From IMG/VR virus record IMGVR_UViG_3300029448_000003, positions 1 to 64,000 of that record: a DNA stretch of 64,000 nt, one strand, 5' to 3'. This DNA comes from a virus. Each line of letters opens with the position of its first letter. Position 1 is the first letter of the stretch. Below the pieces are notes generated by a model that did no database searches, was not told the DNA's origin, and worked only from the letters and a program-made list of their open reading frames with translations. Positions 38,570 through 57,315 of this stretch are shown piece after piece. The translations under genes were made by a program, and so were the position numbers.

Positions 38570-38570
38570 A

Positions 38571-39026
38571 CTAACTCCTTTTTATTTTCTTACCTTTAAA
38601 TACAATAAAGGTATCTGTTATGGGCTTACCCTTTTTCTTAATCCAAGATTGTGGTATAACTCTATCAGCATAAGGAATGCCATACTTAATACACCACTCA
38701 CCATATGTAGACTTTGCATTCTTTCGTAACTTTTTGTTACTATTTGTAAACACAAATCTTATGTCTAACTTTGGGTGTTGTTTCTTTATACACATATGTT
38801 TACGTCTATCCATTACTGTAAACAAACCTTTGGTTTCAATAATAATTCCATTATGTAGTATAAAGTCTGGGGTATAGGTGCGATAAGACAAGTCTTCCCA
38901 CTCAATTTTAATAGTTTCATATCCATATGAAATCTTTAAATCGTTTAGGTGGGATGCAACTTGGTCTTCTAAACCACTCCTATACCCATTCTTACGTGCT
39001 AAATAACGAGCACTATATCTAGACAT
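38571..39026 (-). CDS. Endonuclease I (T7 gp3-like resolvase)
   Basis: YRSGLE, YTPDF, IIETKG, LDIRFVF. Confidence 0.9.
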   Translation of the reverse strand: MSRYSARYLARKNGYRSGLEDQVASHLNDLKISYGYETIKIEWEDLSYRTYTPDFILHNGIIIETKGLFTVMDRRKHMCIKKQHPKLDIRFVFTNSNKKLRKNAKSTYGEWCIKYGIPYADRVIPQSWIKKKGKPITDTFIVFKGKKIKRS

Positions 39027-39879: not shown

Positions 39880-40781
39880 TAAAATGGAATTTCATCATCT
39901 AATGTTTTGTCTACCTTAACAAAGTCTTCAACTAATTGTGAGTCCTCATTAGATAGTTCGGCAGGTTTAGCTTTATCTTTCCACGCACCAAAAACATATA
40001 TATTATAATTCTCAATCCATTGCATAAAGTCACCAAACCTTTCTTGCACTTCATCTGTTACCTCATTTACATCTTTACCCAATGTACCTGATGGTAAGTA
40101 GAACGTACCAATATTTCCTTTGCGTTCAGTAGAACCTAAAGCAATTTCATATTGGACAGGAAGATGTTTCAAACTTCCTACTTTACTAATAGGCTCACCC
40201 ATAATCTTAAAGGCATCCCTATTATCAATCTCCCAAATAAATGGAAGGTCAACTACATCCTCAAGTTCTGAACCATCTTCTCCTAAAACATTTTTAGCAG
40301 TAAGAGTACCTATAAAAACACGTACACGTTTAATACTCTTTAGTAGTTTCTTAGTACTATCAGGTAAAGCGTTATAGTCTTTAATCCAACCTGCAGGTTT
40401 ACCACAATTAAATCCACCTGCATTATCTTTAAGGTCAGTATTTAAATTGTCAGCCATTACAGTCTTAACATAGAAAGCTCTACCACTTGAGTTATCAAAC
40501 TTCTTGTACATAAATCTTTGTACGTAAGGTCTAATCGTTACCTCTTCTGAATAGAATGTAGCATCATTAGCAATGTCCTCTATTTTATAAGAGCCACCAT
40601 TTACTATGGCAGCTTGGGTTTTCTTACCCTTTACTTCTACTTCACCCATAATTGGTGAGTGTTGTAGTTTAAGTCTAGCTAATTGTAGTGTAGCTTTCTT
40701 AGTAGTTAAATCGGCATTCATACCCATAGCTTGAGCCATGCCATTAAAGTTATTTATATCAATTGTATTTACATTATTCAT
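39879..40781 (-). CDS. Single-stranded DNA-binding protein (putative)
   Basis: Adjacent to Pol; acidic tail ending DDEIPF. Confidence 0.7.
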   Translation of the reverse strand: MNNVNTIDINNFNGMAQAMGMNADLTTKKATLQLARLKLQHSPIMGEVEVKGKKTQAAIVNGGSYKIEDIANDATFYSEEVTIRPYVQRFMYKKFDNSSGRAFYVKTVMADNLNTDLKDNAGGFNCGKPAGWIKDYNALPDSTKKLLKSIKRVRVFIGTLTAKNVLGEDGSELEDVVDLPFIWEIDNRDAFKIMGEPISKVGSLKHLPVQYEIALGSTERKGNIGTFYLPSGTLGKDVNEVTDEVQERFGDFMQWIENYNIYVFGAWKDKAKPAELSNEDSQLVEDFVKVDKTLDDEIPF

Positions 40782-40813
40782 AAATTATACTCCTTTCGTG
40801 AGTTGTTAATATA

Positions 40814-42835
40814 TTAAGCAACGTCTTTGGTGTCAAGCCAATTGTCACCAATCTTTGCTTCAAGTAATAATGGTACATTAAAACATACTTTAAAATGTTT
40901 GTCAACAAGTTTTTTTAATTTACCATTAATATTTTTAATGACCCCCAACACAACATTGATTTCAGTTGGATGTACATCAATAACAATACTATCATGTACT
41001 GTATTCACTATACATGATTGATATTGTTGTAATTCCCTATCCATTTCTAACAGAGTTATTGGTACAATATCTGCTGTAGCAAAACTTTGAACCGGGAAAT
41101 TCTTTATCTGCGTAAAATAACTAACTGTACCATTAGACCTACGTTCTACATTTGGAAATGAAAACTGTCTGCCTGATGGTGTTGTAATCTTACGTTCTTC
41201 TATAGCTTCTTTAGCCAATCTGGCATGCCAAAGTGCGATTCCTTTATACTTTTTCGTGAACTGTTTATAATACGTTGCTTCAGCAACTGACCTCCCAAAC
41301 CCCGTAGCTCCGTAGAGTGGTGCAAAGGTGTGGGCTTTAGCTTCTTGCCTACTAATCTTTTGACCACCCTCAGTAATAACTTTGGCAGTGTAGTTATGTA
41401 CGTCAAATCCATTATCTATCTCCTTCATTGCTGTTTCATCTTGTGCTAAATATGCAGCAGTTCTAAACTCTAACTGTGCAAAGTCTGCTTCTAATATCTT
41501 GCCACCTTCCCAACGTGAAATAAATACACGCTTTACAGGAAACGTACCACCTCTTGGCATGTTCTGCATGTTAGGGTCTGCTCCACTAAATCTACCTGTA
41601 GCTGTTCGATGTTGTAATAATCGTACATGTAGTTTATTATCTGATTTTATGTTGGTCTTTATCCCATCAACAAAAGACGATAGGTAACTATCCAATGCTG
41701 ACAACCTAATAACCTTAGATAAAAACTCATGTGCTTTGTCCATACCTTTTTGTTTAGCTACACTAGATAGAAAAGCAAGGTTGCTTTTGCTTGTGCTCCA
41801 CCCATGTGCTGAAATCCATTTAGAAGTAGGTGCAGTAAACTTCATACCTGCAATCTCCTTCGTAGGAATAAACAAGTATCCTTGAGCATTACAGCTAATA
41901 CACCTTGACTCTTTAGCAAAAGGAGAACCATCCTTTTTAATCTTTCGTATCTTACCACTACCATAACAAGTCTTACATTGTACGGCATTTGTTTTATATA
42001 AAACTGTAGAGTGTTCTCTGATGCTACGTTTGTATTCTGTATCTCCCATGTAAGGACTAAATATAATGGGCCATTCCTGCTTGTTCATAGGCTTACGACT
42101 ATAGATTAACCATGATAGTTGTTCAGGACTATTTAAATTAATAGGAGTGTCACCCATAAAATCTTTAACTTCCTTCTGTAAAAACTTTTCTATGTCCATC
42201 TTCTCTTGAGTAAATTCTTTTCTTACTATTTCAAGTGCATCATTATTTACTGCAAAACCACGTTGATATATATGTGCCAAACAGATAGCAACACGATTGG
42301 TTAGTAGTACACTACTGACAAGACCTCTTAGTTCTCTCTTCTTTAATCGTTCACATATCTTTGTGGCAAGTTCTTCGGTAGCATGTAGGTCACTCTTTAA
42401 ATATGAAACCAATTCATCATGTGGTATCTCATCTACACCTACTCCTTTCTTTAGATATTCTTTCATTGTGTCTTGCTTCTTAGTATTTAATTGGTATCGT
42501 TCAGCACATGCTTCCAATGAGAGAGGTTCTTTCTGTCCACATTGTAGTATGTATTCACCTAACATGGTATCAAATACATTGCCATCATATTTAAAACCAC
42601 ACTCCCATAACCACAATAAATCGTGAACAATATTGTGTCCAATCATACATGTAGTCTTATCAAGTATAGGTTGCAAGGCATCCCAGTTATCATACTCATC
42701 TGACATAATCATTGTGTTACCTTGCTCGTCAATACAACCAACCATAACAAGTTTATTTGTAGGTTCAAATGGGTCTAAGTGTAGCTTGTCATTGCGTTTA
42801 GTAACAGTATTCTCTACATCTAACACCAATCTCAT
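40814..42835 (-). CDS. polA: Family A DNA polymerase with 3'-5' exonuclease and DnaJ-like Zn insert
   Basis: LDVE, GHNI..D exo motifs; TATGRFS, DFAQLE, RQEAKAHTFAPLYG, VHDS; CKTCYGSG...CISCNAQG insert. Confidence 0.95.
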   Translation of the reverse strand: MRLVLDVENTVTKRNDKLHLDPFEPTNKLVMVGCIDEQGNTMIMSDEYDNWDALQPILDKTTCMIGHNIVHDLLWLWECGFKYDGNVFDTMLGEYILQCGQKEPLSLEACAERYQLNTKKQDTMKEYLKKGVGVDEIPHDELVSYLKSDLHATEELATKICERLKKRELRGLVSSVLLTNRVAICLAHIYQRGFAVNNDALEIVRKEFTQEKMDIEKFLQKEVKDFMGDTPINLNSPEQLSWLIYSRKPMNKQEWPIIFSPYMGDTEYKRSIREHSTVLYKTNAVQCKTCYGSGKIRKIKKDGSPFAKESRCISCNAQGYLFIPTKEIAGMKFTAPTSKWISAHGWSTSKSNLAFLSSVAKQKGMDKAHEFLSKVIRLSALDSYLSSFVDGIKTNIKSDNKLHVRLLQHRTATGRFSGADPNMQNMPRGGTFPVKRVFISRWEGGKILEADFAQLEFRTAAYLAQDETAMKEIDNGFDVHNYTAKVITEGGQKISRQEAKAHTFAPLYGATGFGRSVAEATYYKQFTKKYKGIALWHARLAKEAIEERKITTPSGRQFSFPNVERRSNGTVSYFTQIKNFPVQSFATADIVPITLLEMDRELQQYQSCIVNTVHDSIVIDVHPTEINVVLGVIKNINGKLKKLVDKHFKVCFNVPLLLEAKIGDNWLDTKDVA

Positions 42836-44055
42836 ACAGTATACCTCGCTAGTCTATAGTCAAGTTCACAATGTACACTACCATGCCAACCTGATAATTT
42901 ATTTTTAACTATATTAAGATGTCTTTGTGCATCCTCTTCATCTTGTCCTTCTACTTGTGGGTTCTTTGCTATAAGAACCATTAGGTCTGCTTCAGCAGCC
43001 TTACCAGTTCTACTACCTTCCATCATACTCTGATTAAGTACCACCTTGCCCTCTGCTTCAGCACTTAACTGTGACATATATAATACTGCACATTCATATT
43101 GCTTTGCAATCTGTCTTGCATGTATAGCACAGGCTTTAAGTGCTTCGTCTGGTCTAGTAAACCCTTTGAACGTAGCAAACTTATCACCCATATCTAATAC
43201 AACAATATCAGGCTTAACAGATTTAACTGCTGACTCAACCCAATTCATGTCACTCATTGTGACATCTTTAATACGTATCTTGTCCTTAACCTTTTGATAG
43301 ATTGAGTGTGCTTTGGTTGGGTCTTGTTTTACTTGAGGTAAGGTAAGACCTGTTGCAGCTGTAAGGTAACGAGCAGCTACTCTGTGATAGCTTTCTTCAT
43401 TACATAATACAATACAGTTTGCACCTTGTTCTGCAAACCCACCCGGACCTGCTATCAATGATGCATGAAAAGATGTTTTACCTGTGTTAGGTCTAGCACC
43501 TATCTCTATTAGATGTCCTGCATTAATACCTTCTACTCGTCTACACAATGAGGGTATATTAAATGTCCACCTTGCTTCCAAATCATTCTTTGCAAGAAGA
43601 GTTTCAATTGTAATATCATCCCATTCAATATTCATGTTGGGAGTAAAGTCATCTGCATATTGCTCCAAGAGATTACGCAAAGGCTCAAGTGAACTCTTTG
43701 CACCATTAACATAATCAAACCCTAAGTTTGCTATGTCTTCTCCAATAACTTGTTGGAATAACTTTGACAACACTTCTTGTGCTACATCACTACCCATAGG
43801 TTTCTCTTTCTTTATTTGCATAAAGAGAGAACCATATGCATTCTTCTGTGCCGTACTCATTGAGGGATTACTTGCTATAAATAATGCTTCAACCTCATCA
43901 GGCGATACAGTACGGCTATATCTATCCATCGCCTTATCTAATGTTTGTTTTATCTTTTGTACATCCTTACTAAATAATCTGTTAGGACATCTTGAACCTC
44001 TATGCTCATCATAGAATGATTTGTCCATAAGACTTCTTACTAATGATAGTTCCAT
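42832..44055 (-). CDS. SF4 (DnaB-like) helicase
   Basis: GARPNTGKT, CNEE, VVLD, MSQL, EAD, IVKNK. Confidence 0.9.
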   Translation of the reverse strand: MELSLVRSLMDKSFYDEHRGSRCPNRLFSKDVQKIKQTLDKAMDRYSRTVSPDEVEALFIASNPSMSTAQKNAYGSLFMQIKKEKPMGSDVAQEVLSKLFQQVIGEDIANLGFDYVNGAKSSLEPLRNLLEQYADDFTPNMNIEWDDITIETLLAKNDLEARWTFNIPSLCRRVEGINAGHLIEIGARPNTGKTSFHASLIAGPGGFAEQGANCIVLCNEESYHRVAARYLTAATGLTLPQVKQDPTKAHSIYQKVKDKIRIKDVTMSDMNWVESAVKSVKPDIVVLDMGDKFATFKGFTRPDEALKACAIHARQIAKQYECAVLYMSQLSAEAEGKVVLNQSMMEGSRTGKAAEADLMVLIAKNPQVEGQDEEDAQRHLNIVKNKLSGWHGSVHCELDYRLARYTV

Positions 44056-44831
44056 ACCATCTCCTTTAAGTTGTTAATATCGGTTTCTTTTCTATACTTT
44101 AAGTCATCAGTTATACGCAAAACTTTTACTTTGTCAACCCATCCTCTTAATTCTTTTGCAATTTGCAAATTCTTTTTAAGAGCATCGGGGTCAAGTGCCA
44201 CGATAACTTTTTTATAATGACTTAAAAAATCTTTGTGTTCGTGTAGTAGGCTTGTACCCAATAGGGCTACACCTGCCATACCATACTCTGAAACAACACA
44301 TGCACTTATACAATCTTCTACTACAACACATGTATCATTACGTTCATTCGTTAGGGAATTGTAAACTCCTGATACAAAAGGTACTTTACTTTTACCATAA
44401 CGTTTCCATTTAGGAAGTCTGCTTCCTATGCTTCTACCAACGGCATCTATTACCATGCCCTCGTCATTAAATATTTTAAAGACTGCTCTATTTTCCCGGA
44501 CATCATGCATACAATAGTTTTCATATATATATTTATATTCATTATTATGTAACACACCATGTTTAAAATCCACAATGTATTCAGGAAAACTAAATGTCGT
44601 TCCTTCGACTTGCCTTTTATTAAATGCAGAACGTATCTGTTCTATTGACATGTTCACTTTAACTGAACCACCTACAGAACAACCAGCTTTGTAACAGTTG
44701 TACAATACTTGTCCCATATTTGTGGACACAGTAAATGTATGCTTACCACCACATGATGGACAGTCCATACGTTTTGTGCTGTCATAAGATAGCTCGTCTG
44801 CAATTTCGTTTACATATTTCTGTATATCCAT
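44040..44831 (-). CDS. DNA primase (Zn finger + TOPRIM)
   Basis: CPSC...C...C; VVED; ALLGT; ALDPDA. Confidence 0.9.
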   Translation of the reverse strand: MDIQKYVNEIADELSYDSTKRMDCPSCGGKHTFTVSTNMGQVLYNCYKAGCSVGGSVKVNMSIEQIRSAFNKRQVEGTTFSFPEYIVDFKHGVLHNNEYKYIYENYCMHDVRENRAVFKIFNDEGMVIDAVGRSIGSRLPKWKRYGKSKVPFVSGVYNSLTNERNDTCVVVEDCISACVVSEYGMAGVALLGTSLLHEHKDFLSHYKKVIVALDPDALKKNLQIAKELRGWVDKVKVLRITDDLKYRKETDINNLKEMVWNYH

Positions 44832-44852
44832 GTTTCACACCTTATCATATTT

Positions 44853-45212
44853 TTAGGAATAAAGCAAGTACCTTACTTTTAAAGTACTCCTAATTCCAGT
44901 GCATTCATTTATAATTCTACGACAAACTTTAGAAAATCTGTACTTGGAGTAGGGAATGTATGTGCCTTTATGTGGTCTTATTTGTGGTGCAATATACTCT
45001 TGGAATCCAAAGTCTTTCTTCTGTTTATCTAACAGAATCAATATGTTATTGTCCCAAGTTAAGTCAACATCACACCACTTCAATAAAAAGATTTCTTTAT
45101 ATTGTTGCCGCAATTCATAGGCAAGTTGAATTATTATTCCTATGTTCCTATATTCAAATTTACTGTATGAGTGTGACAAAAATGCAACGATTTCTTTTTT
45201 GTTCCACTTCAT
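44853..45212 (-). pseudogene. Truncated/degenerate tyrosine integrase
   Basis: IIIQLAYELRQQYKEIFLLKWCDVDL resembles box I without the catalytic R; only 119 aa; in the usual integrase position upstream of primase. Confidence 0.55.
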
Positions 45213-45487
45213 CTTTTTCTCCTCTTCATTGGTTTAAAGTTACCCTCTTGCCAATCAACTCTCATACTCTGCCACTTCTCATTAGTCCAATGAGGTAGCA
45301 GATTAAAGTTTGCAATAGACATTTTATGTACATCTCTGTACACATTACCTGCTTCACGTATCCAAACCCATTTACGTTTGGTTAGTACCCAAGTCTTTCT
45401 GTATCCACTACGTGGAAGTTTGCCTTGCCAATACACTTCATATAGCTCGGCATCCTGCCACCTCTTTGCCTTTGGTTTAGTCCACAT
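45209..45487 (-). CDS. Hypothetical protein
   Basis: 92 aa, W-rich, basic. Confidence 0.6.
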   Translation of the reverse strand: MWTKPKAKRWQDAELYEVYWQGKLPRSGYRKTWVLTKRKWVWIREAGNVYRDVHKMSIANFNLLPHWTNEKWQSMRVDWQEGNFKPMKRRKR

Positions 45488-45765
45488 TAAAAATGTCCCA
45501 TGTCATTTTTCCAAGCAAGTTCGTCTGACTCTAGTACATAAGCATCATACCACTTAGACCCATGTCCATCATCACTCTTTTGTGGTACAAACTTTAGTGA
45601 GCTATGTAGATGACACAATAGTTCATCTAACATGGACACTTCTGACAGTCGTATATCATGGCATTCTGACACGTACTCTAGTGCTTCCTTCAATTTGTTG
45701 TGTAGTGTGAGGAACTTTAATCTTTGTTCCCCTGTAATTAATATATCTTCATTTACTTCTGGCAT
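45487..45765 (-). CDS. Hypothetical protein
   Basis: 92 aa, coupled to neighbours. Confidence 0.6.
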   Translation of the reverse strand: MPEVNEDILITGEQRLKFLTLHNKLKEALEYVSECHDIRLSEVSMLDELLCHLHSSLKFVPQKSDDGHGSKWYDAYVLESDELAWKNDMGHF

Positions 45766-46027
45766 AATCGTACTCCTTTATGTAGTTAAATGTTATGTTT
45801 GCACTAGGATATTGTGACTGTGTAAAGTCCAGTGCATAGTTAATAGGGTCAACTTCAACACCATGTTTTTTGAGATGCTCATTTAGAAATCGCATCCTTG
45901 TAGGCTGCCCATCTACGGACATACCTACTTCATACTCAAACATTGTGCTGTCAGTAACTTCAATAGACTTTACTCTTGGTTCATTCTTACCTTTAGTAGT
46001 CCACGTTTCATAAAATTCATTTCTCAT
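45749..46027 (-). CDS. Hypothetical protein
   Basis: 92 aa, coupled to neighbours. Confidence 0.6.
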   Translation of the reverse strand: MRNEFYETWTTKGKNEPRVKSIEVTDSTMFEYEVGMSVDGQPTRMRFLNEHLKKHGVEVDPINYALDFTQSQYPSANITFNYIKEYDYARSK

Positions 46028-46431
46028 TATGCACTCTCCATTTCTATAAATTCTGTTAAGGGTTTTGTGTAGTCCCTTTCAAAGCCTACACCTGCGACTT
46101 TCCACTTACTGTGGTAAGAGGGTAATACATTTTTTGTATTGAACGTAAACAGTTCCACTACATCATTAACAGATGTAGACCTATGCTTACCCACTCTAAT
46201 ACCTATAATCTTTTTAGGGTCATAGTTACTCCCCCAGTATTGGCTTATCGTGTTTGTAGTTTTATAAACATCTTCAAGTATCTCATGCACTACAGACAGA
46301 TTATTAATTGTAGGATACCTAAGTGCTCGTGGCACTCTAATGGTTGCTACCCAATAGTATCGTAGGTTATTAGCTTCAGCAAACATATCAACTGCGTGAT
46401 ACACTCTTGCTTCATAAAAAATAGTTGTCAT
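46027..46431 (-). CDS. Hypothetical protein
   Basis: 134 aa, RSTSVND motif, GAGGAG RBS. Confidence 0.6.
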   Translation of the reverse strand: MTTIFYEARVYHAVDMFAEANNLRYYWVATIRVPRALRYPTINNLSVVHEILEDVYKTTNTISQYWGSNYDPKKIIGIRVGKHRSTSVNDVVELFTFNTKNVLPSYHSKWKVAGVGFERDYTKPLTEFIEMESA

Positions 46432-46435
46432 ATTG

Positions 46436-46588
46436 TTACTCCTCTAGTTGTTCATTGTATAAGTAAAGACCAAAATCATAGCCTTGTTTGTATGCATCAG
46501 ATAATTTACCATTTTTTCTTTTACCTTTTAGTAAACCATCTGTAACCCCATCTTTAAAATCTTGTAGGTTTATTACTGTATCATTCAT
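46436..46588 (-). CDS. 50-aa hypothetical protein (FKDGVTDGLL...YKQGYDFG)
   Basis: Read manually; fills the gap with RBS. Confidence 0.6.
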   Translation of the reverse strand: MNDTVINLQDFKDGVTDGLLKGKRKNGKLSDAYKQGYDFGLYLYNEQLEE

Positions 46589-46769
46589 TGTTTATTAACT
46601 CCTCTGCCGTTTGTAATAAAACTTCTCTAAATGCACCATCTATTGTTGGGTTCTCTTCAGGATAGTGTTTTAAATTGTATAGGTACATATTTGTAACTCT
46701 TTCTATAAAATCAGATAATTTTAATTCATTTATGTCGTAAATATATCCATAAGGTTTGTTACTAATCAT
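46581..46769 (-). CDS. Hypothetical protein
   Basis: Start placed at MISNKPY. Confidence 0.5.
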   Translation of the reverse strand: MISNKPYGYIYDINELKLSDFIERVTNMYLYNLKHYPEENPTIDGAFREVLLQTAEELINNE

Positions 46770-47193
46770 AATTAATATCCCATCTGTAAAATATGTGGTC
46801 ATCTATTCTTGCTATGTATGTCTTGGTGCTTGCCCAAGATGGTGTAACATAGTATGCATGGTAGTGTGTAGCACCCTCAACAAAGTCATCAAGGTTGCCA
46901 TGATATACTCCATGTGCCACGAGCATTGACTGCTCCCATGCATCCATATCTCTAGGTGCATCACTCTTGCCATCACAGTACCAGCTAAACTGACATCTGT
47001 TTTTAACAGGGTAGTCAGGCTTCCAACTGTAGGTAGGTCCTTGCTCCACCACTTCACATACTGTGTTAGGGTATCGCTCATCATACACTCTGTTCATCAC
47101 GACCTGTGCTACTGCTACCTGCCCTATTAAGGATTGGTTCTTAGCTTCGTGATACACATTGAGTGCTAAACATAATAATGTTTCAGCTATCAT
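46762..47193 (-). CDS. SleB-like cell wall hydrolase
   Basis: CLALNVYHEA...AVAQVVMNRV...CQFSWYCDG...GATHYHA...HIFY. Confidence 0.92.
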   Translation of the reverse strand: MIAETLLCLALNVYHEAKNQSLIGQVAVAQVVMNRVYDERYPNTVCEVVEQGPTYSWKPDYPVKNRCQFSWYCDGKSDAPRDMDAWEQSMLVAHGVYHGNLDDFVEGATHYHAYYVTPSWASTKTYIARIDDHIFYRWDINYD

Positions 47194-47213
47194 ATTCTTC
47201 TCCTTTCGTTATG

Positions 47214-47630
47214 TTATATATAAACTCTTGGGTGTGGTTCGGATTCACTATTATGGACAAGTTCCATAACAATATTACCCATCCAACTAGGGTCTAAGTC
47301 TTTCCATCTGTTAAGATGTCTGTTATTTACTTTAAAATAATCATCTTCATATGGGTTATATCTAACCCTATTCCAACCAAAGTTTTCTATAGGTGGGTAT
47401 GAGATAAACGGAGATGCCAACATACCTACTGCAAATGCATGTACATTTTTCTTTCCTTGTTCTCGCACTCTCTTCTGTCCACCCTTTCGCACCACAAACT
47501 TTGCTTCAGACAGAACAACATGGTTGTCATGCCCAATAACTTTATTTGTTTTAGTGCTTTGAATACTCCAAAGTTTTTTGTGTAAGTTCCAGTATACACG
47601 AACTCTAAGTGTAAGATATTTCATATCCAT
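47214..47630 (-). CDS. Conserved phage hypothetical protein
   Basis: VYWNLHKKLWSI...RVREQGKKNVHAF...YNPY. Confidence 0.7.
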   Translation of the reverse strand: MDMKYLTLRVRVYWNLHKKLWSIQSTKTNKVIGHDNHVVLSEAKFVVRKGGQKRVREQGKKNVHAFAVGMLASPFISYPPIENFGWNRVRYNPYEDDYFKVNNRHLNRWKDLDPSWMGNIVMELVHNSESEPHPRVYI

Positions 47631-47632
47631 AA

Positions 47633-48805
47633 TTATTTTACTCCTTCAAATATGTGGGCAATCACATCTACTGTCCACCCATTGCCTAACATCTTATAAC
47701 GTTGGGTGTTGGAGATGGTATCCCACTCTTGTTTTTTATCATTATATTTTCCAAACTGTGTGTAATTATCAGGCACAGTTTGTAGTCTTTCACACTCCAA
47801 TGGTGTTAGCTTTCTATATAATTCTTTCTGTACTACAACATTGTCCTTGTGGACAGTTGTCAAACAGTTTGACTTATCGCTATCACTTACTTCTAACTGT
47901 CGTGTAAATGGTAGTTCAAGTTGGTCATCCTTTCGTACTCCATTCTTATCAAGCCTACGATTAACAAGCCTACCAATGGCTACCTTTGGTTGTCTATGCC
48001 CACCCTGCATAGTCGTGAGTGTAGGACTCTTCCCATTAGGTGAGTATACTCGCTTGATAATGTCGTACCCCTTGATGTTGGTAGCATTACCTACTTGTAT
48101 GGGTTTCTTTACATAGGTAGGTATCTGTCCTTTGTACATAGATGCAGTAAGACAGTTAGCCTTTGGGTCATCAACAGACTTTACCATATCACCTCTACGT
48201 CTACCACACCATTCATTCTCAAGATAGTTTGGTATCTTGTGGAAAGGTAGGTTTTCAAGTATGTCACTAATAACAATGCCCTTGTCCTCTATCTGTGGTA
48301 TAGGTATCTGCTCGTACTCCTTTGATTCATTTAAGAATCCAAACCAATATAGCCTATGTCTATTCTGTGCTGATGCATCAGCAGAGTTAATCATCTGTGG
48401 TTCAAAGCCAATGAACTCTGATATAACATCTTGAGATTCTTTTTTCATGCGAACATTCTCCAAGAGAATATACTTTGGTTGTAGCATATCTCGTATACGT
48501 ATGAACTCAAAGAATAGTTTACTGCGTGGGTCATCAAAGTTTAACTGTTTGCCTGCAAAACTAAAACCTTGACATGGCGAACCACCCATAAGCAAGTCAC
48601 ACTCTATATCCCATTTACTTGCCGTACTAGAAGTAAACTTTGTAACGTCACCTAGTTGTACTGTGTTTGGATAGTTTTTCTGTGCCACTTGCATTGGATA
48701 GTTTTCTATCTCGCAAGCATAATAATTCCTATAGTCAATGCCCACTCTATTGAGTGCAATCTGACCACAAGACATACCATCAAATAAACTGACTACATCT
48801 TTCAT
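47633..48805 (-). CDS. C5 cytosine DNA methyltransferase
   Basis: SLFDG, GGSPCQGFS, LLENV, Q.R.R, ERLQ, RYKMLGNGW. Confidence 0.93.
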   Translation of the reverse strand: MKDVVSLFDGMSCGQIALNRVGIDYRNYYACEIENYPMQVAQKNYPNTVQLGDVTKFTSSTASKWDIECDLLMGGSPCQGFSFAGKQLNFDDPRSKLFFEFIRIRDMLQPKYILLENVRMKKESQDVISEFIGFEPQMINSADASAQNRHRLYWFGFLNESKEYEQIPIPQIEDKGIVISDILENLPFHKIPNYLENEWCGRRRGDMVKSVDDPKANCLTASMYKGQIPTYVKKPIQVGNATNIKGYDIIKRVYSPNGKSPTLTTMQGGHRQPKVAIGRLVNRRLDKNGVRKDDQLELPFTRQLEVSDSDKSNCLTTVHKDNVVVQKELYRKLTPLECERLQTVPDNYTQFGKYNDKKQEWDTISNTQRYKMLGNGWTVDVIAHIFEGVK

Positions 48806-49369
48806 TTACTTCTCCTCTATGTAAACACGTAAGTGTGTTGACTGTTGTATGTTCTGCCCATGTGCCGTAGCACCAGTGCCTTTGTACTCGTCTTTAACAT
48901 GCTGACCTAACACCCTCATTTTGTATCTGCTTCTGTTGAAATATTTTCTTGCATCATCAACAAACCTTTGACCATCACAGTCATTAGGTATCTCGCTGAA
49001 TACATAACGTGGTGCTGTCACTTCTCTGTAAGACTTTTCCTCAAGCCTTTTGTGTAAGTCTTGATTACGTTCTTTGAGATTTTCATATACATCTATACTA
49101 ACAGAGTTGTTACAATGCTTTTTATACTGTTCAATTTCTTGGGTTAACTCAGCTACCTTACCCTCTTGTGTATCTCTTCGCACCTCTTCATTTAGTTGTG
49201 TGTTGTATTTTATAAATGCTCTGACAAAATGTACAAAGTCCATGTCCTCTAATGCATAATCCTTTTCTTGTGACTTGGATTCATAAAGAATATTATCTAA
49301 TTCTTTTATGTCTGATGGTACAAAACCATCAACTGTTTCAAGTATTTTTACTATCTGTTTTATCTTCAT
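48806..49369 (-). CDS. Hypothetical protein with coiled coil
   Basis: 187 aa; DMDFVHFVRAF and IPND..G...YKMRV.GQ. Confidence 0.65.
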   Translation of the reverse strand: MKIKQIVKILETVDGFVPSDIKELDNILYESKSQEKDYALEDMDFVHFVRAFIKYNTQLNEEVRRDTQEGKVAELTQEIEQYKKHCNNSVSIDVYENLKERNQDLHKRLEEKSYREVTAPRYVFSEIPNDCDGQRFVDDARKYFNRSRYKMRVLGQHVKDEYKGTGATAHGQNIQQSTHLRVYIEEK

Positions 49370-49524
49370 TGCATTTCTCCTATAATATTATTGTAATAAT
49401 ATGATACGTCATCATAACTTTCATCTTCAGATGCACCAGCACAATCCAAACACACTATACCCTCGTCAGTTTCGTGGCTAACCCAATCATTTTTAGTGGG
49501 TTCATTACATATAATACAATGCAT
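49366..49524 (-). CDS. Small zinc-finger protein
   Basis: CIIC...CLDC; GAGGAG RBS. Confidence 0.6.
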   Translation of the reverse strand: MHCIICNEPTKNDWVSHETDEGIVCLDCAGASEDESYDDVSYYYNNIIGEMQ

Positions 49525-49525
49525 A

Positions 49526-49675
49526 TTATGCACTCCTCTTTTTGTTGTTGTGTAATTGTTTAAGCAAATCATTTACAAACCATAGCTTTGTATTGTCTAC
49601 ATTTTTTCTTTGGTTACGTCTTTCCATTTGCCTTATAGTTTTATCAGCTTTCAGCTTTCTCTTCTCTTTCGACAT
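49526..49675 (-). CDS. 49-aa basic protein
   Basis: Read manually: MSKEKRKLKADKTIRQMERRNQRK... Confidence 0.5.
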   Translation of the reverse strand: MSKEKRKLKADKTIRQMERRNQRKNVDNTKLWFVNDLLKQLHNNKKRSA

Positions 49676-49781
49676 CTTTCTTTTCCTTTTTTCTATTATA
49701 TTTTTTCTTGTCCTTCACAACCCTATGCTTGTACTGCTCAAGTTGCAGAGATTTAGCAATAGGGTTGCGAGGTTTTTGCAT
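49644..49781 (-). CDS. 45-aa ArfA-like basic peptide
   Basis: Read manually: MQKPRNPIAKSLQLEQYKHRVVKDKKKYNRKKEKKDVEREEKAES. Confidence 0.55.
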   Translation of the reverse strand: MQKPRNPIAKSLQLEQYKHRVVKDKKKYNRKKEKKDVEREEKAES

Positions 49782-49786
49782 GACAC

Positions 49787-50008
49787 CTAGCCTGCAAAGT
49801 GCCTTAACTTTGGGTTGGACACCTTTCTTTCAAAGGCTACAGTAAATTTCCCAAAGTGAAATTGTCTAAAGGTGTCACCTACATTGGTAGTAAACCAACC
49901 CCTAGATGTATGTTTACGTTTACGAGCAAAACCTTTTTGCCCTAATAAGTTAAAACGAAAACCTTTAGTGCCATCATTCAATGACTTTGTTGCTAAAATT
50001 AAAAACAT
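49787..50008 (-). CDS. Hypothetical protein
   Basis: 73 aa, LNDGTKGFRFN; AAAGGA RBS. Confidence 0.65.
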   Translation of the reverse strand: MFLILATKSLNDGTKGFRFNLLGQKGFARKRKHTSRGWFTTNVGDTFRQFHFGKFTVAFERKVSNPKLRHFAG

Positions 50009-50027
50009 AATGTTTTTCCTTTCTATA

Positions 50028-50050
50028 AGTGTCCTATATGGGACAGTTTA
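50028..50050. repeat. 23-bp element with TGTCC-N6-GGACA palindrome (copy 1)
   Basis: AGTGTCCTATATGGGACAGTTTA, identical at 51238-51260. Confidence 0.9.
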
Positions 50051-50296
50051 TTGTGTAACATTATTGTTACTCAATTTCTTTTTCAGTAACTTCATTGCAG
50101 TTACTAATAGTTTGTGACTATCTTCTCCACCATATCCACCATAGCTTGTGTTACCATGCCATATGTAATGTGTTGTTTCATCACCCCAATGCTCATAATT
50201 ACCTATGTAACCCTTAGAATACTCGTCACCTAGTAATTCCATTACTATTTCAAGTGCTTGTTTGTTTGTATCTTCCACAATAAAACGTTTCAGCAT
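50048..50296 (-). CDS. Hypothetical early protein
   Basis: 82 aa with RBS; flanked by hairpin and palindrome. Confidence 0.65.
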   Translation of the reverse strand: MLKRFIVEDTNKQALEIVMELLGDEYSKGYIGNYEHWGDETTHYIWHGNTSYGGYGGEDSHKLLVTAMKLLKKKLSNNNVTQ

Positions 50297-50315
50297 TTTG
50301 TTTTCCTTTCTGTTA

Positions 50316-50362
50316 ATAGTTATATGTTACTTTTATATACATTTCAAGTAACATCTAACTAT
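50316..50362 (-). promoter_or_regulatory. Conserved-loop hairpin H1 overlapping TTGAAA-N17-TATAAC promoter
   Basis: 17-bp stem (1 mismatch) closing loop GAAATGTATATAA. Confidence 0.75.
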
Positions 50363-50371
50363 ATTTTATTT

Positions 50372-51013
50372 TTAGTGTTGCAAATATGCAACATCTTTTA
50401 CGTTACTATCCCAACACATACGGCAATCAAGGCACTTGTTGCCTTGCTTTGAGCTAGGACACATTTTGTCTACAACTAAATCCTCGCTAGTCACGACTGT
50501 ACTACTGTGCTTGTGGAACTTATGTGGTAAACCATTAATCATGGTTGCACTAATTCTAACCACAAGATTGCTAGGAAAATCCCCAAACAATTTCTTGTAC
50601 TCTTGCACTATGCTCACCTCTCGTGTGGGCAGCCAATGCCTAACACTAGGTGTATGTTTAGCAATCGTAACAATCATAGTTAAGTGTTCAATGCTTTGCA
50701 AGTCACCACTATCGTGCCACCTAAAGACCTTAGTCTTTGCACAATAGTGCAAGATAAGAAATACCATAGCATCAACCCATTTAGGGTTGTTCATTAGCTT
50801 GTCCATTCTCCTATCCAATGCTTCTTGTACATTGGGGAATGTGTACCTACCTTTGAGTGCATAGCAATCAGCACAAGTAGACATCAAAACTTTACGAAGT
50901 TTACTGCCTACTTTGCATTTAAATGCACTCAATGAATAGCCAAAAGATGGCATCTTAGATGGCTTGGATAAGCCACCTACCTCACTCCATGCTTCTTTAA
51001 CTGTGTTAAACAT
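50372..51013 (-). CDS. GP88-family Cys-rich protein
   Basis: SKMP, C..CYA, FRWHDSGD, HWLPTRE, CP...C..C..CW. Confidence 0.75.
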   Translation of the reverse strand: MFNTVKEAWSEVGGLSKPSKMPSFGYSLSAFKCKVGSKLRKVLMSTCADCYALKGRYTFPNVQEALDRRMDKLMNNPKWVDAMVFLILHYCAKTKVFRWHDSGDLQSIEHLTMIVTIAKHTPSVRHWLPTREVSIVQEYKKLFGDFPSNLVVRISATMINGLPHKFHKHSSTVVTSEDLVVDKMCPSSKQGNKCLDCRMCWDSNVKDVAYLQH

Positions 51014-51018
51014 TATAC

Positions 51019-51213
51019 TTACTCTCCAAAAGTTTCGTTCCATTCGTGTGCAGGAATGCCACTCTTAATGAACTCACGTTCATCCTCCGACAAGTTCGGC
51101 ATAGCATTCTGTATGAGTTCTCCCCCATACCACGCATCAATCTGTGATTGAGTAACGTCAATATCCATTGTGTTTGTTTCACCACTAAATGGTGATGTCT
51201 TTGTTATTATCAT
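51019..51213 (-). CDS. Conserved phage hypothetical protein
   Basis: LIQNAMPNLS.DEREFIKSG. Confidence 0.7.
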   Translation of the reverse strand: MIITKTSPFSGETNTMDIDVTQSQIDAWYGGELIQNAMPNLSEDEREFIKSGIPAHEWNETFGE

Positions 51214-51237
51214 ATTTAACTCCTTTAGTTAAATGTT

Positions 51238-51260
51238 AGTGTCCTATATGGGACAGTTTA
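51238..51260. repeat. 23-bp palindromic element (copy 2)
   Basis: Identical to 50028-50050. Confidence 0.9.
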
Positions 51261-51566
51261 AGTTAGCTTTATTAATAAGAGTGCTAACTCTTCAGTTGGT
51301 AGGTATCCCTTTACCCCACCTTCAAAAGTGCCATCATCTACATAGTTATAATCACTATCTAGAATTGCGACCTCTACTCGTTCTGCGTAGTCACCATACC
51401 TACCACCTATACTATCATAAGGTGCATTCTTATCGTTCTGAACGATAGATATGTAACGATTACCTTTAATAGGTAATACGATTTGATTTGCAGTTTCATC
51501 TCCAAAGTTTTTCTGAAACTTTTTGTTAATTAAATCAGCGAAAGTATAATCCATTTTCATTTTCAA
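51258..51566 (-). CDS. Hypothetical early protein
   Basis: 102 aa; ISIVQ...YG...EVAIL; flanked by hairpin and palindrome. Confidence 0.65.
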   Translation of the reverse strand: MKMKMDYTFADLINKKFQKNFGDETANQIVLPIKGNRYISIVQNDKNAPYDSIGGRYGDYAERVEVAILDSDYNYVDDGTFEGGVKGYLPTEELALLLIKLT

Positions 51567-51576
51567 ACTCCTTATA

Positions 51577-51640
51577 AGTTACATATAAATAAATAAAACA
51601 CTTTTATATACATTTCAAGTGTTTTATTTATTATGTAACT
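51577..51640 (-). promoter_or_regulatory. Conserved-loop hairpin H2
   Basis: 24-bp stem with 3-nt bulge; loop identical to H1. Confidence 0.75.
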
Positions 51641-51642
51641 AA

Positions 51643-51831
51643 TTACTTCTTACACAACGGAATGGCAAGAACACAAACCATACCAAACACTATTAACATA
51701 GTGCCAATTATGGTCAATATCATAGGCTGTACGTTTACATTCCATGCTACATCTATGGATAAACATACAAGTGAAATAGTACCAAGTACTATTGTAAAAT
51801 TACAGATAAAGTTATGTATAATGTTATACAT
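51643..51831 (-). CDS. Two-TM small membrane protein
   Basis: 62 aa hydrophobic. Confidence 0.6.
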   Translation of the reverse strand: MYNIIHNFICNFTIVLGTISLVCLSIDVAWNVNVQPMILTIIGTMLIVFGMVCVLAIPLCKK

Positions 51832-52112
51832 TATAAAGTCTCCAAAAAGTTTGTAAGAATGTTAATACATTCTTCTGTTTCAGTTGGTTGTGTAAACAAC
51901 CCTTTGCTCCCATGACTATACAAAGCCATAGGCTTCATGTCAACGTTCATCTCTTCCTTCTCATATTCCGAAGGAAAGCTAGATGTTACACTAGATGGGT
52001 AATCTAGATTAAAGTTACGATTGCCCTTCTTGGAACAAGAAGTCTTACCCCATCTACGATTGTAAAACAATCTAGGGTCAGGTGGACACTTAGTTACAGA
52101 TACATGAGTCAT
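51831..52112 (-). CDS. Hypothetical early protein
   Basis: 93 aa, AAGGAG RBS. Confidence 0.6.
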   Translation of the reverse strand: MTHVSVTKCPPDPRLFYNRRWGKTSCSKKGNRNFNLDYPSSVTSSFPSEYEKEEMNVDMKPMALYSHGSKGLFTQPTETEECINILTNFLETL

Positions 52113-52139
52113 ATAAAATCTCCTTTTGAGAAAGTAGCG

Positions 52140-52772
52140 TTAAGCTACTTCCTCAGATGTTAACATTTTGATTTGCTCTATAAGAGCATTGATAAGTTCC
52201 TTGTGAGGAACTTGGTGAGTATCAGCTTGAACTAGCATTTCCAATGCTATGTCATCTGCTGATAGTTTCTTCTTAGAAACTTGAAACTGTCCAATATGGG
52301 ACACTTCAGATGATTTATCATCTGTTGTTTCAGTTGTTTTAGATGCTTTAGCATCTGTCTTAGGCTTGTCAGCTTTAGCTGATTCCGTGTCTACTTGCTC
52401 TTGGCTTGGCAAGGTATCTTTGTAATGTTTTCTCATTGCATTTTGCAATGAACCAATATTAGTTCCTTTGAAACCAACCTTCTTAATGAAGGTAGACACA
52501 GTTTCACTGTGTTCAATAAGCCATTCAGATTCAGACGTTCTACGTCTGTCAATAGGTGGAAAGTTGTATTTATCCTTTATCGTTTTACTTAAAACGGATA
52601 CATTTTCAACAGCCTTAATCTGTTTGATTAAGTTTCCAATTCTGTAGTCCAATCCACCATCCTTAATGGATTTAGCAAAACTTCTTTGTTCTGTTTTGAC
52701 GGCTTTCGTCAGAGCTTGTCCTTCATTCTGAAGGGAAGAGATTTGTGATTTGTTGTTTTCGATTTTTGTCAT
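52140..52772 (-). CDS. First early protein (hypothetical)
   Basis: 210 aa, IDRRRTSE..W; first minus-strand gene after strand switch. Confidence 0.7.
   Translation of the reverse strand: MTKIENNKSQISSLQNEGQALTKAVKTEQRSFAKSIKDGGLDYRIGNLIKQIKAVENVSVLSKTIKDKYNFPPIDRRRTSESEWLIEHSETVSTFIKKVGFKGTNIGSLQNAMRKHYKDTLPSQEQVDTESAKADKPKTDAKASKTTETTDDKSSEVSHIGQFQVSKKKLSADDIALEMLVQADTHQVPHKELINALIEQIKMLTSEEVA
52288..52303. repeat. Palindromic element copy 3 (inverted, intragenic)
   Basis: AAAC-TGTCCAATATGGGACA-CT. Confidence 0.75.
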
Positions 52773-52779
52773 GTTAATT

Positions 52780-52839
52780 ACTCCATATATTTTTAAACAC
52801 TTCTCATAAACATTCGAAGTGCTTTAAAAATATTGGAGT
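52780..52839 (-). promoter_or_regulatory. Hairpin H3 sequestering the RBS of the 52772 gene
   Basis: About 22-bp stem including GGAG/CTCC; loop CGAATGTTTATGAG closed by ACTT/AAGT. Confidence 0.7.
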
Positions 52840-52860
52840 TATAATGCTGTTGGTTTTTGG

Positions 52861-52876
52861 TGTCCCATATCGGACA
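52861..52876. repeat. Palindromic element copy 4
   Basis: G-TGTCCCATATCGGACA-GTTT. Confidence 0.75.
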
Positions 52877-52969
52877 GTTTTGTACTCCAACGTAGTTGGG
52901 AACGTCATTTCCTCATAATCATCACTATGTGATGGCATAGGTGACGGCAACTGTGCTTCTTTGCGTGTG

Positions 52970-53055
52970 TCCGGGCATAATGCCTGCCCAAGCGAGAGGG
53001 TAGGGCGAGGGACACCCCCCTGTGGGGGGGTATTGTGTATGAATATATACACAGA
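52970..53055. other. GC-rich G-run/hairpin block at strand switch; candidate genome terminus/packaging site
   Basis: GGGTAGGGCGAGGGACACCCCCCTGTGGGGGGG followed by TGTGTAT-N6-ATACACA. Confidence 0.5.
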
Positions 53056-53144
53056 TTAGGAATAAGGTTGGTAACCACTTACAGAATAAGCGTATACTGT
53101 TGCAAAAGTATCACACCTTTGTACATATTTTTACACAAAGGGGG

Positions 53145-53173
53145 TTGACATAAATATAAAAGTTTGGTATAAT
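53145..53173 (+). promoter_or_regulatory. Consensus sigma70 promoter
   Basis: TTGACA-N17-TATAAT with extended TGn. Confidence 0.9.
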
Positions 53174-53290: not shown

Positions 53291-53319
53291 TTGACAATGA
53301 CTAAAAAATCCGTAAAACT
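53291..53319 (+). promoter_or_regulatory. Second promoter-like motif matching the capsid promoter
   Basis: CTTGACAA-N14-GTAAAACTAA. Confidence 0.5.
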
Positions 53320-55669: not shown

Positions 55670-55879
55670 ATGTGGATTCCAGTAATAACAATACTATGGG
55701 CATTAGGTGAAAATGCTACGTGGGTAAATTTTCCAATGGTAAATTTTCCATTTACAACACAAGATAGATGTCAAGAATATGTAGCAAGGGTTAGAAGTAG
55801 TATAACTAAAGACCCTCAATATTTAGAAGGGTATAGTGTATGTGTAGAGATACCTAGTAAAAAAGGAGAAGCAACATGA
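55670..55879 (+). CDS. Small Cys-pair protein
   Basis: F.T.DRC.....G.SVCV. Confidence 0.6.
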   Translation: MWIPVITILWALGENATWVNFPMVNFPFTTQDRCQEYVARVRSSITKDPQYLEGYSVCVEIPSKKGEAT

Positions 55880-56916
55880 ATAAAATGATTTATACATTTA
55901 GTATATTTTTAACTTTAGTAGGCACTATATCTAGTGCTGTCGCAAGAGAACAAATAAGGATAGTCGGTTCTAGTACTGTTTATCCATTTTCAACAATCGT
56001 TGCAGAGAAATTTGCACAACAAGGAAATCCAGCTCCTATTGTAGAATCAACAGGTTCAGGTGGTGGAATGAAATTATTTTGTGCTGGTGTAGGTTTAGAA
56101 CATCCAGATATTACAAACGCATCAAGAGCAATTAAAGATAAAGAAGCTACAACTTGTAAGAAAAATGGTGTTGCATTTACAGAGTTTGTTGTAGGTAATG
56201 ATGGACTTGCATTTGCAAATTCAAACGAAGGACAAAAATTTAGTATTTCTATTGCACATATAGCAGCGGCACTTGCAAAAGAACTCCCTAAAGATGGGTC
56301 TATGCAAGATAATTTTTTGATGACTTGGGATGAAGTAGATGCTTATGTGCATAAACAAATGGGTCATCCGATTTTAAATTTACCAAATCAAAAGATTGCA
56401 ATTATGATACCACCACCAACCTCTGGAACAAGAGATGCAATGGGTTCTTTGTTTATGAAGAATGGTTGGAAGAAACTAGGGTTATATTCTGGTGACACGA
56501 AAGGTGGATATAAAGTATTAAGAGAAGATGGTGTTGCAATAGAGATGGGCGAAAACGATAATTTAATAGTAGAAAAATTAGTTGCAGATTCAAATTTATT
56601 TGGTGTTTTTGGTTATTCCTTTTTTGACCAAAATAGAGATAAAGTCCAATCCTCTATAATTGATAATATAGAATTAACTTTTGATAATATTGCATCATAT
56701 CAATATCCGGGTGCTAGACCATTATTCTTTTATGTAAAGAATGACCATATTTATGCAATACCAAACATGTTAAGTTATGTTGAAGAATTTGTGTCAGAGA
56801 GGGCTATGAGTATTAATGGATATTTATTTCCAGCAGGGCTTGTGCCTTTATCAAATGATGACTATGCAAAACAAGTTGATGCATTATCAACATTAAAGGA
56901 AAACAAACATGATTAA
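55876..56916 (+). CDS. pstS: Phosphate ABC transporter substrate-binding protein (auxiliary metabolic gene)
   Basis: Signal peptide; IRIVGSSTVYPF, ESTGSGGG.K.FC, DITNASR, SGTRD, END, YP.ARPLFFY. Confidence 0.93.
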   Translation: MNKMIYTFSIFLTLVGTISSAVAREQIRIVGSSTVYPFSTIVAEKFAQQGNPAPIVESTGSGGGMKLFCAGVGLEHPDITNASRAIKDKEATTCKKNGVAFTEFVVGNDGLAFANSNEGQKFSISIAHIAAALAKELPKDGSMQDNFLMTWDEVDAYVHKQMGHPILNLPNQKIAIMIPPPTSGTRDAMGSLFMKNGWKKLGLYSGDTKGGYKVLREDGVAIEMGENDNLIVEKLVADSNLFGVFGYSFFDQNRDKVQSSIIDNIELTFDNIASYQYPGARPLFFYVKNDHIYAIPNMLSYVEEFVSERAMSINGYLFPAGLVPLSNDDYAKQVDALSTLKENKHD

Positions 56917-57040
56917 TTGGGATAAAATTAAATTTGATATGTGGAATAAAAGATTTGGCGAAGGAACTAATTTTGATTTAGACTATGGTAAGTTACTTAT
57001 TATAGGTCTATTAGTGTATCACATCTTTTTTCAAGGTTAG
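56909..57040 (+). CDS. 43-aa membrane protein (B ortholog of 76..207)
   Basis: Read manually. Confidence 0.8.
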   Translation: MINWDKIKFDMWNKRFGEGTNFDLDYGKLLIIGLLVYHIFFQG

Positions 57041-57042
57041 CT

Positions 57043-57315
57043 ATGGTTTTAAAAAGACATCAAAATCCTTCTGGTGGTTTAAACGCTGCAGGTCGAGCAC
57101 ACTTTAAAAAGAAAGACGGCAGTAATCTTAAACCACCTGTAAAAGCAGGAGTTAATCCTAGAAGAGTTTCTTTTGCTGCACGATTTGCAGGTATGAAAGG
57201 ACCTATGAAAAAACCTAATGGTGAACCTACACGTAAGGCATTAGCGTTAAAAGCATGGGGTTTTCGTAATGAGCAATCAGCGAGAAATTTCGCAAACAGG
57301 CACAAAAAAACATGA
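57043..57315 (+). CDS. Basic phage protein (DUF6321-like)
   Basis: NPSGGLNAAGR...NLKPP...RR.SF.ARF.GM. Confidence 0.7.
   Translation: MVLKRHQNPSGGLNAAGRAHFKKKDGSNLKPPVKAGVNPRRVSFAARFAGMKGPMKKPNGEPTRKALALKAWGFRNEQSARNFANRHKKT

Follow-up and report, generated by a model that had tools for sequence, protein, structure and literature searches.

Promoter-early stem-loops (PeSLs), described in the T4-type phages RB49/phi1, PST/T4 and nt-1/KVP40, comprise in succession a stop codon, an AT-rich tract, a sigma-70 promoter overlapped by a stem-loop, and a Shine-Dalgarno (SD) sequence; they flank orphan genes, mediate their shuffling, and display both promoter and terminator activities in reporter assays (PMC2839356, PMC4122927). 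Hairpins of about two turns between early genes transcribed by the host polymerase are otherwise known as RNase III sites of phages T7 and T3 (R0.3-R1.3) and from the lambda N leader, and cutting at lambda N and T7 1.1/1.2 unmasks a ribosome-binding site. In phage N4, early promoter function is tied to an inverted repeat with a 5-7-bp stem, a 3-nucleotide (nt) loop and a conserved flanking sequence, read on the template strand by a virion RNA polymerase of ~3500 amino acids (aa) together with host single-stranded DNA-binding protein and gyrase, while the lambda nut sites, one per early operon, contain boxB, a short stem with a GNRA-like pentaloop. Here we analyse three long hairpins, designated H1, H2 and H3, in a 64,000-nt stretch of viral DNA (the window; positions 1 to 64,000 of IMG/VR record IMGVR_UViG_3300029448_000003), the opening part of a contig of 110,914 bp. 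The hairpins fill three intergenic gaps in the first 2.5 kb of the leftward early/replication operon (34582-52772, minus strand) of an HMO-2011-type podophage, and the head of that operon adjoins a divergent control region of 450 bp.

We consider it moderately probable that H1-H3 are host-type early promoters wrapped in stem-loops, which also punctuate read-through RNA and mark gene-swap junctions; both the promoter activity and the particular RNA-level role of the stem are what we infer from patterns of motif, pairing and position. The likeness to PeSLs extends to several features. Sigma-70-like -35 and -10 boxes lie inside the element, a motif match that is clearest in H1 and weaker in H2 and H3; a stable stem-loop overlaps the promoter; the element stands between an upstream stop codon and a downstream SD and ATG, beside small orphan genes of a variable early region; and it coincides with indel or replacement junctions between related genomes. 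In other respects the two differ. The hairpin described here encloses the whole promoter, whereas the PeSL stem-loop lies beside one box or partly over it; the stems are long, perfect and AT-rich where those of PeSLs are G/C tracts; copies are few (1-5 per genome); a companion palindrome, GTCC-N6-GGAC, is present; the carrier is a 55-kb podovirus of marine Alphaproteobacteria and not a T4-type myovirus; and the elements are known from sequence alone, whereas PeSLs are also characterised by activities measured in reporter assays and by mini-circle formation. Since no sequence is shared and the phage is an HMO-2011-type podovirus, the kinship is one of design, not descent. An initial annotation, made by reading the DNA sequence alone, had drawn attention to the hairpins; PeSL kinship and a role as gene-swap junctions lie beyond the readings it offered.

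Hairpins H1-H3 and their counterparts in related phages

All three long minus-strand hairpins reported by the initial annotation are present at the positions it gave, with fold z-scores between -4.5 and -6.7. H1 (50316-50362) has arms at 50316-50332 and 50346-50362 that form 17 bp with one G.A mismatch around a 13-nt loop, GAAATGTATATAA, and sits between the stop codon of a GP88-like gene (50372) and the SD and ATG of an 82-aa orphan gene (50296). H2 (51577-51640) carries the same loop on a full stem of 24 bp with a 3-nt bulge, of which the inner 16 bp are perfect (51588-51603 / 51617-51632); it begins 2 nt past the stop of a 62-aa gene and ends 5 nt short of the SD of a 100-aa gene. H3 (52780-52839) has a 24-bp stem with one bulge and a loop, GAATGTTTATGA (52815-52804, counting an extra C-G pair as stem), that is related to the loop of H1 and H2. 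A 21-nt core, ACTT-GAAATGTATATAA-AAGT, is the same in H1 and H2 and absent from the rest of the contig. Predicted RNA fold energies for H1, H2 and H3 are -14.5, -22.5 and -23.8 kcal/mol, with z-scores of -4.5, -6.1 and -6.6 (-5.6 to -6.7 under DNA parameters), and none of 200 shuffles folds as well. The contig contains four hairpins having at least 12 matched pairs, H1 and H2 included, against 1.95 +/- 1.4 in block shuffles, which never reached 16 matches. A scan of the elements against Rfam gave sub-threshold chance matches only.

The 5-kb region had no near-identical match among 50,697 phage records, and an exact search of IMG/VR for the 21-nt core was likewise without result. Relatives were retrieved through the GP88-like early protein and a primase profile, and they have hairpins at equivalent positions with differing stems. 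The family as now assembled includes HMO-2011 (hairpin at 3-43), CRP-1 (988-1029), CRP-345 (817-856 of its record) and about 60 marine metagenome contigs, and encompasses many different stems, which span 14-27 bp among copies and reach ~55 bp in one relative (L003; relatives are cited by such numbers where they must be told apart). Every copy is located between a stop codon and an SD. Matches to a covariance model, among which H1 scores 53.7 bits, occur in the early-operon orientation only, apart from weaker reverse-strand echoes at the same sites.

The differing stems had been read initially as a sign of selection on structure, to be checked by covariation across relatives, and the check bears this out. 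In 13 copies from 10 sources, a set found by hairpin scans and therefore biased in its count, 95.6% of cells are paired, versus 72% in column shuffles and 32-54% with slid partners, and compensatory double changes appear at 12 of 14 stem pairs. A cleaner sample comprised 95 metagenome matches chosen by the 19-nt loop pattern CTTGAAATGTATATRAAAG alone: about 60 of these have stems of 9-27 bp belonging to at least nine unrelated classes, and the other ~35 are chance matches that show nothing beyond the three imposed pairs. Because the loop-picked matches divide so cleanly into stemmed and stemless sequences, and because the 13 copies covary, we conclude that pairing is under selection.

The same comparisons qualify the original description of a conserved loop on unrelated stems. 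It holds within this genome but not across relatives, where the single stem GTTATATAACACTT bears at least eight different loop interiors. What is general among relatives is a loop length of 12-13 nt and loop ends of the form GA...TGA. An identical 13-nt loop, GAAATGTATATGA, nonetheless recurs on at least nine stem classes, and the loop GATACTTTAGTGA is common to HMO-2011 and CRP-1, on different stems.

Promoter motif and cassette behaviour of the elements

The overlap of H1 with TTGAAA-N17-TATAAC, also part of the initial description, was confirmed at 50347-50319. In this predicted sigma-70-type promoter (50319-50347, minus strand) the -35 box, TTGAAA (50347-50342), has two bases in the stem and four in the loop, and the -10 box, TATAAC (50324-50319), lies within the 3' arm, which places the predicted start just beyond the hairpin. 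Promoter-like boxes occupy corresponding places on the minus strand of H2 (TTGAAA at 51618-51613, N17, TATTTA at 51595-51590) and of H3 (an interrupted -35, TTCGAA, and a -10-like TAAAAA). Through the family, -35 forms at the top of the stem and start of the loop are TTGAAA, TTGAAT, TTGACT and TTGATA, followed 16-17 nt on by a -10-like box. That box is TATAAC in H1 and its orthologues in L002 and L004, in CRP-345, CRP-1, L037 and L074, and in three metagenome stem classes; remaining copies have TATATA, TATATT, TATTTA or TATTAC, and by hand count 10 of 13 distinct stem classes have TA at the -10 position of the 3' arm. The H1 orthologues of L002 and L004 keep both TATAAC and the 17-nt spacing, even in L004, where a loop shorter by 1 nt is offset by an additional 1 nt in the arm ahead of TATAAC. 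With its interior free to vary and its length fixed, the loop thus behaves as a promoter spacer would, and its conservation would follow from the -35 box and spacer that lie in it.

The TATAAC box also recurs outside the hairpins. The pattern TTGA[ACT][ACT]-N16-17-TA.A[AT][TC] has 27 matches in the contig, compared with 18 +/- 3.8 in shuffles, and six of the 27 are intergenic, where intergenic DNA makes up 5.5% of the contig. TTGAnn-N16/17-TATAAC is found at the conserved intergenic sites 10060, 69591 and 100218, and also at 44110. The contig holds two related phage genomes (see below), and TTGACA-N16/17-TATAAC stands at orthologous intergenic sites of both: 10060 pairs with 69591, and 100218 lies opposite 40808. 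This recurrence at orthologous intergenic sites argues that TATAAC is a working -10 form in these phages. Boxes of this type that end in C are usual in Alphaproteobacteria, for example in the Caulobacter consensus GCTANAWC. The initial remark on promoters is the best-supported part of that annotation as regards a sigma-70-type promoter, although not as regards a promoter of the N4 type.

One of these extra-hairpin sites has a structure of its own. At 10025-10087 (plus strand) the promoter TTGACA-N16-TATAAC precedes a gene for 365 aa (10280-11377), and its -10 region is paired with an arm at about -50 to -65 through 15 pairs, two of them G.U; the orthologous site at 69591 in the second genome is without this pairing.

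As the initial annotation had observed, there is no sign of a phage RNA polymerase: searches with Pfam, PHROGs, a catalytic-motif scan and a protein atlas yielded none, three large virion proteins being left unannotated. The host polymerase must therefore serve the phage.

Other uses of the loop were considered and rejected. A short open reading frame from the ATG in the loop lacks conservation, with ATA or GTA in place of the start codon in some copies and frames that differ among them. A single-stranded -10 box in the loop, or a second -35 box at its 3' end, has no consistent partner box at 15-19 nt. An invertible promoter is discounted by the 13-nt segment between the repeats, which is too short for inversion.

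The elements are also placed where genes come and go. Early genes are gained, lost or replaced one at a time between relatives. H2 is 98.6% identical to its L002 copy over 70 nt, within flanks that are ~75% identical or unrelated; in L002 the gene upstream of H2 is replaced and the downstream gene (51258-51560) is absent. The same 51258-51560 gene is missing from a metagenome variant of this phage, in which a joint connects 51258, at a palindrome's edge, with 51575, where H2 has its foot, and other metagenome variants lacking single genes have joints 51645->51825 and 51024->51229. Among 13 loci with an H2-type stem, a constant upstream flank is followed by three different downstream sequences. 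Because elements are thus shared among otherwise unrelated neighbours, we conclude that they are also recombination junctions for swaps of orphan genes.

Roles of the stem and competing explanations

In the arrangement we favour, each element would act at the DNA level as a host sigma-70-type promoter whose -35 box (TTGAnn) runs from the stem top into the beginning of the loop, whose spacer of 16-17 nt is supplied by the remaining loop bases and the upper 3' arm, and whose -10 box (TATAAC or a TAnnnN variant) lies in the 3' arm. Transcripts initiated in the element would begin just past the hairpin, with a short leader and a free SD, and recombination at the same elements would exchange orphan genes one at a time. 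Since a transcript from the enclosed promoter excludes the hairpin, the pairing should matter either in DNA or in read-through RNA. The single orientation of all copies favours RNA, as do the purine loop ends, for which closure by sheared G.A pairs is possible in the sense strand alone. Read-through transcripts would hold both arms and could form a hairpin of 14-27 bp between a stop codon and the next SD, which may insulate or process the message by attenuation, 3'-end protection or RNase III cutting. The T7-like RNase III processing proposed by the initial annotation is a possible form of this role, fitting the stem lengths and the precedent of the lambda N leader. No U-tract follows the stem in any copy examined, and for this reason processing, end protection or non-classical attenuation is likelier than intrinsic termination.

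H3 provides the most direct indication of a function in RNA. Burial of its GGAG ribosome-binding site, another of the initial observations, proved correct: at the foot of the stem, ACTCC is paired with GGAG (52784-52781), which is the SD belonging to the first early gene (gene 1). Pairing of an anti-SD with the SD recurs in L002 (CTCTCCA/TGGAGAG, compared with ACTCC/GGAGT in the window) and in L003, whose H3 orthologue (L003 2488-2615) is a hairpin of ~125 nt and ~55 bp with the base GACTCCGTTTG/CAAACGGAGTC and a masked SD. Because of this pairing with the gene 1 ribosome-binding site, at least H3 should act as RNA; in read-through RNA it would mask that site. The base of the L003 hairpin also carries GANTC sites (GACTC/GAGTC).

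A number of observations weigh against wrapped promoters as the general explanation. H2 (TATTTA) and H3 (TTCGAA/TAAAAA) are weak promoter matches, and a start at H3 would land in or past the SD. TTGA is absent from the H3 orthologues of L003 and L004, and hence not every hairpin is a promoter. Consensus-like promoter matches are generally not above chance in this AT-rich DNA, and a promoter leaves the conserved 3' loop end, (T)GA, unexplained. No leftward promoter was identified upstream of H3, where a conserved block, TGTGGTTAMC...CTRATCTGTGTA, is without a convincing -35/-10 pair. RNA data consist of two short contigs without ends, 49788-50039 and 50599-50759, from one metatranscriptome (9% of words). 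To these are added the biased count of the 13-copy set, the lack of U-tracts, and the stem mismatches: among 40 distinct hairpins there are 12, few for a comparison of G.U with A.C as a test of RNA-specific pairing, and none is G.U, so that an RNA-specific signature is missing.

A first alternative is that the hairpins are purely RNA elements, namely processing or stability signals in one long early transcript of the host polymerase, cut by RNase III, with the promoter resemblance an AT-rich by-product. Cutting would separate messages and free the masked SD at H3, as at the T7 early R sites or in the lambda N leader. Perfect stems of 14-27 bp, and ~55 bp in L003, suit such a role; so do the strictly sense-strand orientation, the SD masking of H3 kept in three phages, the persistence of the H3 hairpin in L003 and L004 without a -35 box, and GA...UGA loop ends able to form sheared G.A pairs on the sense strand only. 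We nevertheless regard this explanation as unlikely, if worth serious attention. It does not account for TATAAC fixed 16-17 nt from TTGAnn in independent stem classes, or for the compensating length change in L004. A T7 site is an irregular hairpin of about 20 bp or more, with an internal loop that holds its single cut and no promoter inside, whereas stems of the H1-H3 type are continuous, with at most one mismatch or bulge and a 12-13-nt apical loop. Many stems are just 14-17 bp, none of their mismatches is G.U, the upstream promoter that such a transcript would need for H3 was not found, and RNase III cleavage enters as a candidate role only.

A second possibility, which we find distinctly doubtful, is that a protein or RNA of phage or host recognises the loop and so co-regulates the genes behind the copies; candidates would be an antiterminator of the N/boxB kind, a repressor of translation or an antisense RNA in a "kissing" contact. 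It would explain why the 13-nt loop GAAATGTATATGA is identical on at least nine stem classes, why HMO-2011 and CRP-1 have the same loop GATACTTTAGTGA on different stems, and why loop termini are kept even where TTGA is lost. A recognition loop, however, is hard to reconcile with an interior that varies freely, in eight variants, on the constant stem GTTATATAACACTT. Neither a boxA-like partner nor a candidate binder was found; none of the former was noticed in the flanks of the copies examined, in which no pattern search for it was made, and the neighbouring genes are without domain matches. Nor is the layout that of nut sites: three copies occupy one 2.5-kb operon and none the other, in place of one site per early operon, and the loops, at 12-13 nt, differ from the boxB pentaloop.

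Still less probable, in our estimate, are promoters gated by DNA structure, in which extrusion of a cruciform or single-strand hairpin would control activity through supercoiling or a structure-specific polymerase, as in N4. With N4 the elements share a link between inverted repeat and promoter in early phage DNA; the arms are perfect in Watson-Crick pairing and very AT-rich, there is no G.T among the mismatches, promoter boxes are divided between loop and stem, and the promoter at 10060 also has its -10 box paired with an upstream arm. A central spacer of 12-13 nt, however, disfavours cruciform extrusion. The N4-like hairpin promoters raised by the initial annotation fail on hairpin geometry and on the virion RNA polymerase: stems of 14-27 bp, loops of 12-13 nt and sigma-70-like boxes stand in place of the N4 hairpin, and neither a virion polymerase nor any other phage RNA polymerase was found. 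Masking of the SD by H3 points to RNA, and the loop termini are strand-specific.

That the hairpins are terminators or attenuators only, ending or damping transcription of the upstream gene, scarcely merits credence, since the position of each hairpin directly past a stop codon, and the precedent of one PeSL stem-loop that is a strong terminator in a reporter assay (PMC2839356), are outweighed by the lack of a U-tract after any copy, by AU-rich stems, and by the prospect that three terminators within 2.5 kb of an 18-kb operon would deprive the replication genes of transcripts. Antisense-strand terminators were also discarded, as a plus-strand T-run follows H1 only, and so were integron attC-like sites, because this genome shows no integrase and the R/L box layout is lacking.

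Control region, companion palindromes and phage context

A comparator for the wrapped promoters is provided by the rightward operon, whose promoter at 53145-53173 (plus strand) is a perfect TTGACA-N17-TATAAT outside any hairpin; its spacer shares ATATAAAAGT with the loop of H1 and H2. A second promoter in tandem, TTGACA-N16-TAAAAC, lies at 53291-53318 (plus strand), and the TTGACA boxes of both are conserved in all six aligned phages. CRP-345 and CRP-1 have TTGACA-N16/17-TAAAAC as divergent promoter. The non-coding block upstream of H3 (52960-53100, minus strand), with the TGTGGTTAMC...CTRATCTGTGTA sequence given above, resembles a DnaA box (TGTGGATAA); a C-rich stretch containing a CCCCCC/GGGGGG hairpin comes next. 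Six phages (the window, L093, L094 and L002-L004) have it conserved ahead of the early operon, where it might serve as an origin or packaging site or mark a genome end.

The companion palindrome (14-16 bp, core GTCC-N6-GGAC) has four copies within the same 2.9 kb as the hairpins. One, ACTGTCCGATATGGGACAC, is at 52860-52878, 20 nt upstream of H3; a second is inside gene 1 (52286-52305) in the opposite orientation; a third, ACTGTCCCATATAGGACAC, directly follows the stop of the 100-aa gene (51239-51257); and an identical copy directly follows that of the 82-aa gene (50029-50047). In 1.4 Mb of HMO-2011-type loci, among them L002, L003, L008, L009 and L093-L095, there are 247 copies of GTCC-N6-GGAC in both orientations, often in the predicted 5' leader, 15-40 nt past a hairpin, or immediately after a stop codon. 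The inner bases, AAYRTT or GAYRTC, covary as expected of a palindrome in DNA, and the ligand is probably a dimeric DNA-binding protein. A further palindrome, TTGTGATCACAA, occurs twice in each of two control regions, those of CRP-345 (L093, 880-990) and CRP-1 (L094, 915-1005), where its copies adjoin a GTCC-N6-GGAC site; it is absent from the window and looks like an operator.

Hairpins and palindromes together punctuate eight small early genes (49787-52772, minus strand), mostly orphans. Searches of these eight with Pfam matched the GP88-like gene (50372-51013) alone, and PHROGs assigned that gene (phrog_1392) and a 64-aa gene at 51019-51213 (phrog_20898) only, both to function-unknown families. 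The phage is placed in the HMO-2011 type because its DNA polymerase (40814-42835, minus strand) shares 61-63% identity with the polymerases of the Roseobacter phages CRP-345 and CRP-1 and of Puniceispirillum phage HMO-2011, and because its replication module contains a T7-like primase, a DnaB-like helicase, a family A polymerase and a class II ribonucleotide reductase. By a crude gene map and self-comparison, the contig consists of two related genomes of ~55 kb in head-to-tail order. Their aligned segments are 65-97% identical at the nucleotide level, mostly 70-80%, and a 93% match links positions 1-213 with 56834-57046. It is probably a chimeric or concatemeric assembly, not a single 111-kb phage. 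The early arm of the second genome is unrelated or lost at the contig end, and this genome has no match to the covariance model. There are no tRNA or tmRNA genes. Among the small rightward early genes is one for a PstS-like phosphate-binding protein (55876-56916, plus strand; PBP_like_2, E = 8e-35), an auxiliary metabolic gene. HMO-2011-type phages are among the most abundant viruses of the surface ocean, and have hosts in SAR116, Roseobacter and SAR11 lineages.

A more ambitious form of the proposal, to which we attach rather low probability, is a two-state switch: an element of 45-65 nt would serve as a promoter on DNA, and in read-through RNA as a self-masking hairpin whose GA...UGA loop is read by a dedicated factor or nuclease. 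Were this so, each swappable orphan gene would be expressed only from its own promoter, the message from upstream being silenced or cut, and the switch and the GTCC-N6-GGAC palindromes would be the two parts of a punctuation system peculiar to the very abundant HMO-2011-type marine phages. The literature searched is silent on transcription in this group: promoters and hairpins are mentioned in neither of two papers on it (PMC6918029, PMC9038755), and palindromes are not mentioned in the latter. We propose a testable map of the HMO-2011-type early control region, composed of TATAAC host-type promoters, hairpin wrappers and the companion palindrome. If the elements act as we favour, the PeSL design, in which a promoter and a stem-loop are combined at a junction for gene exchange, would not be confined to T4-type phages.

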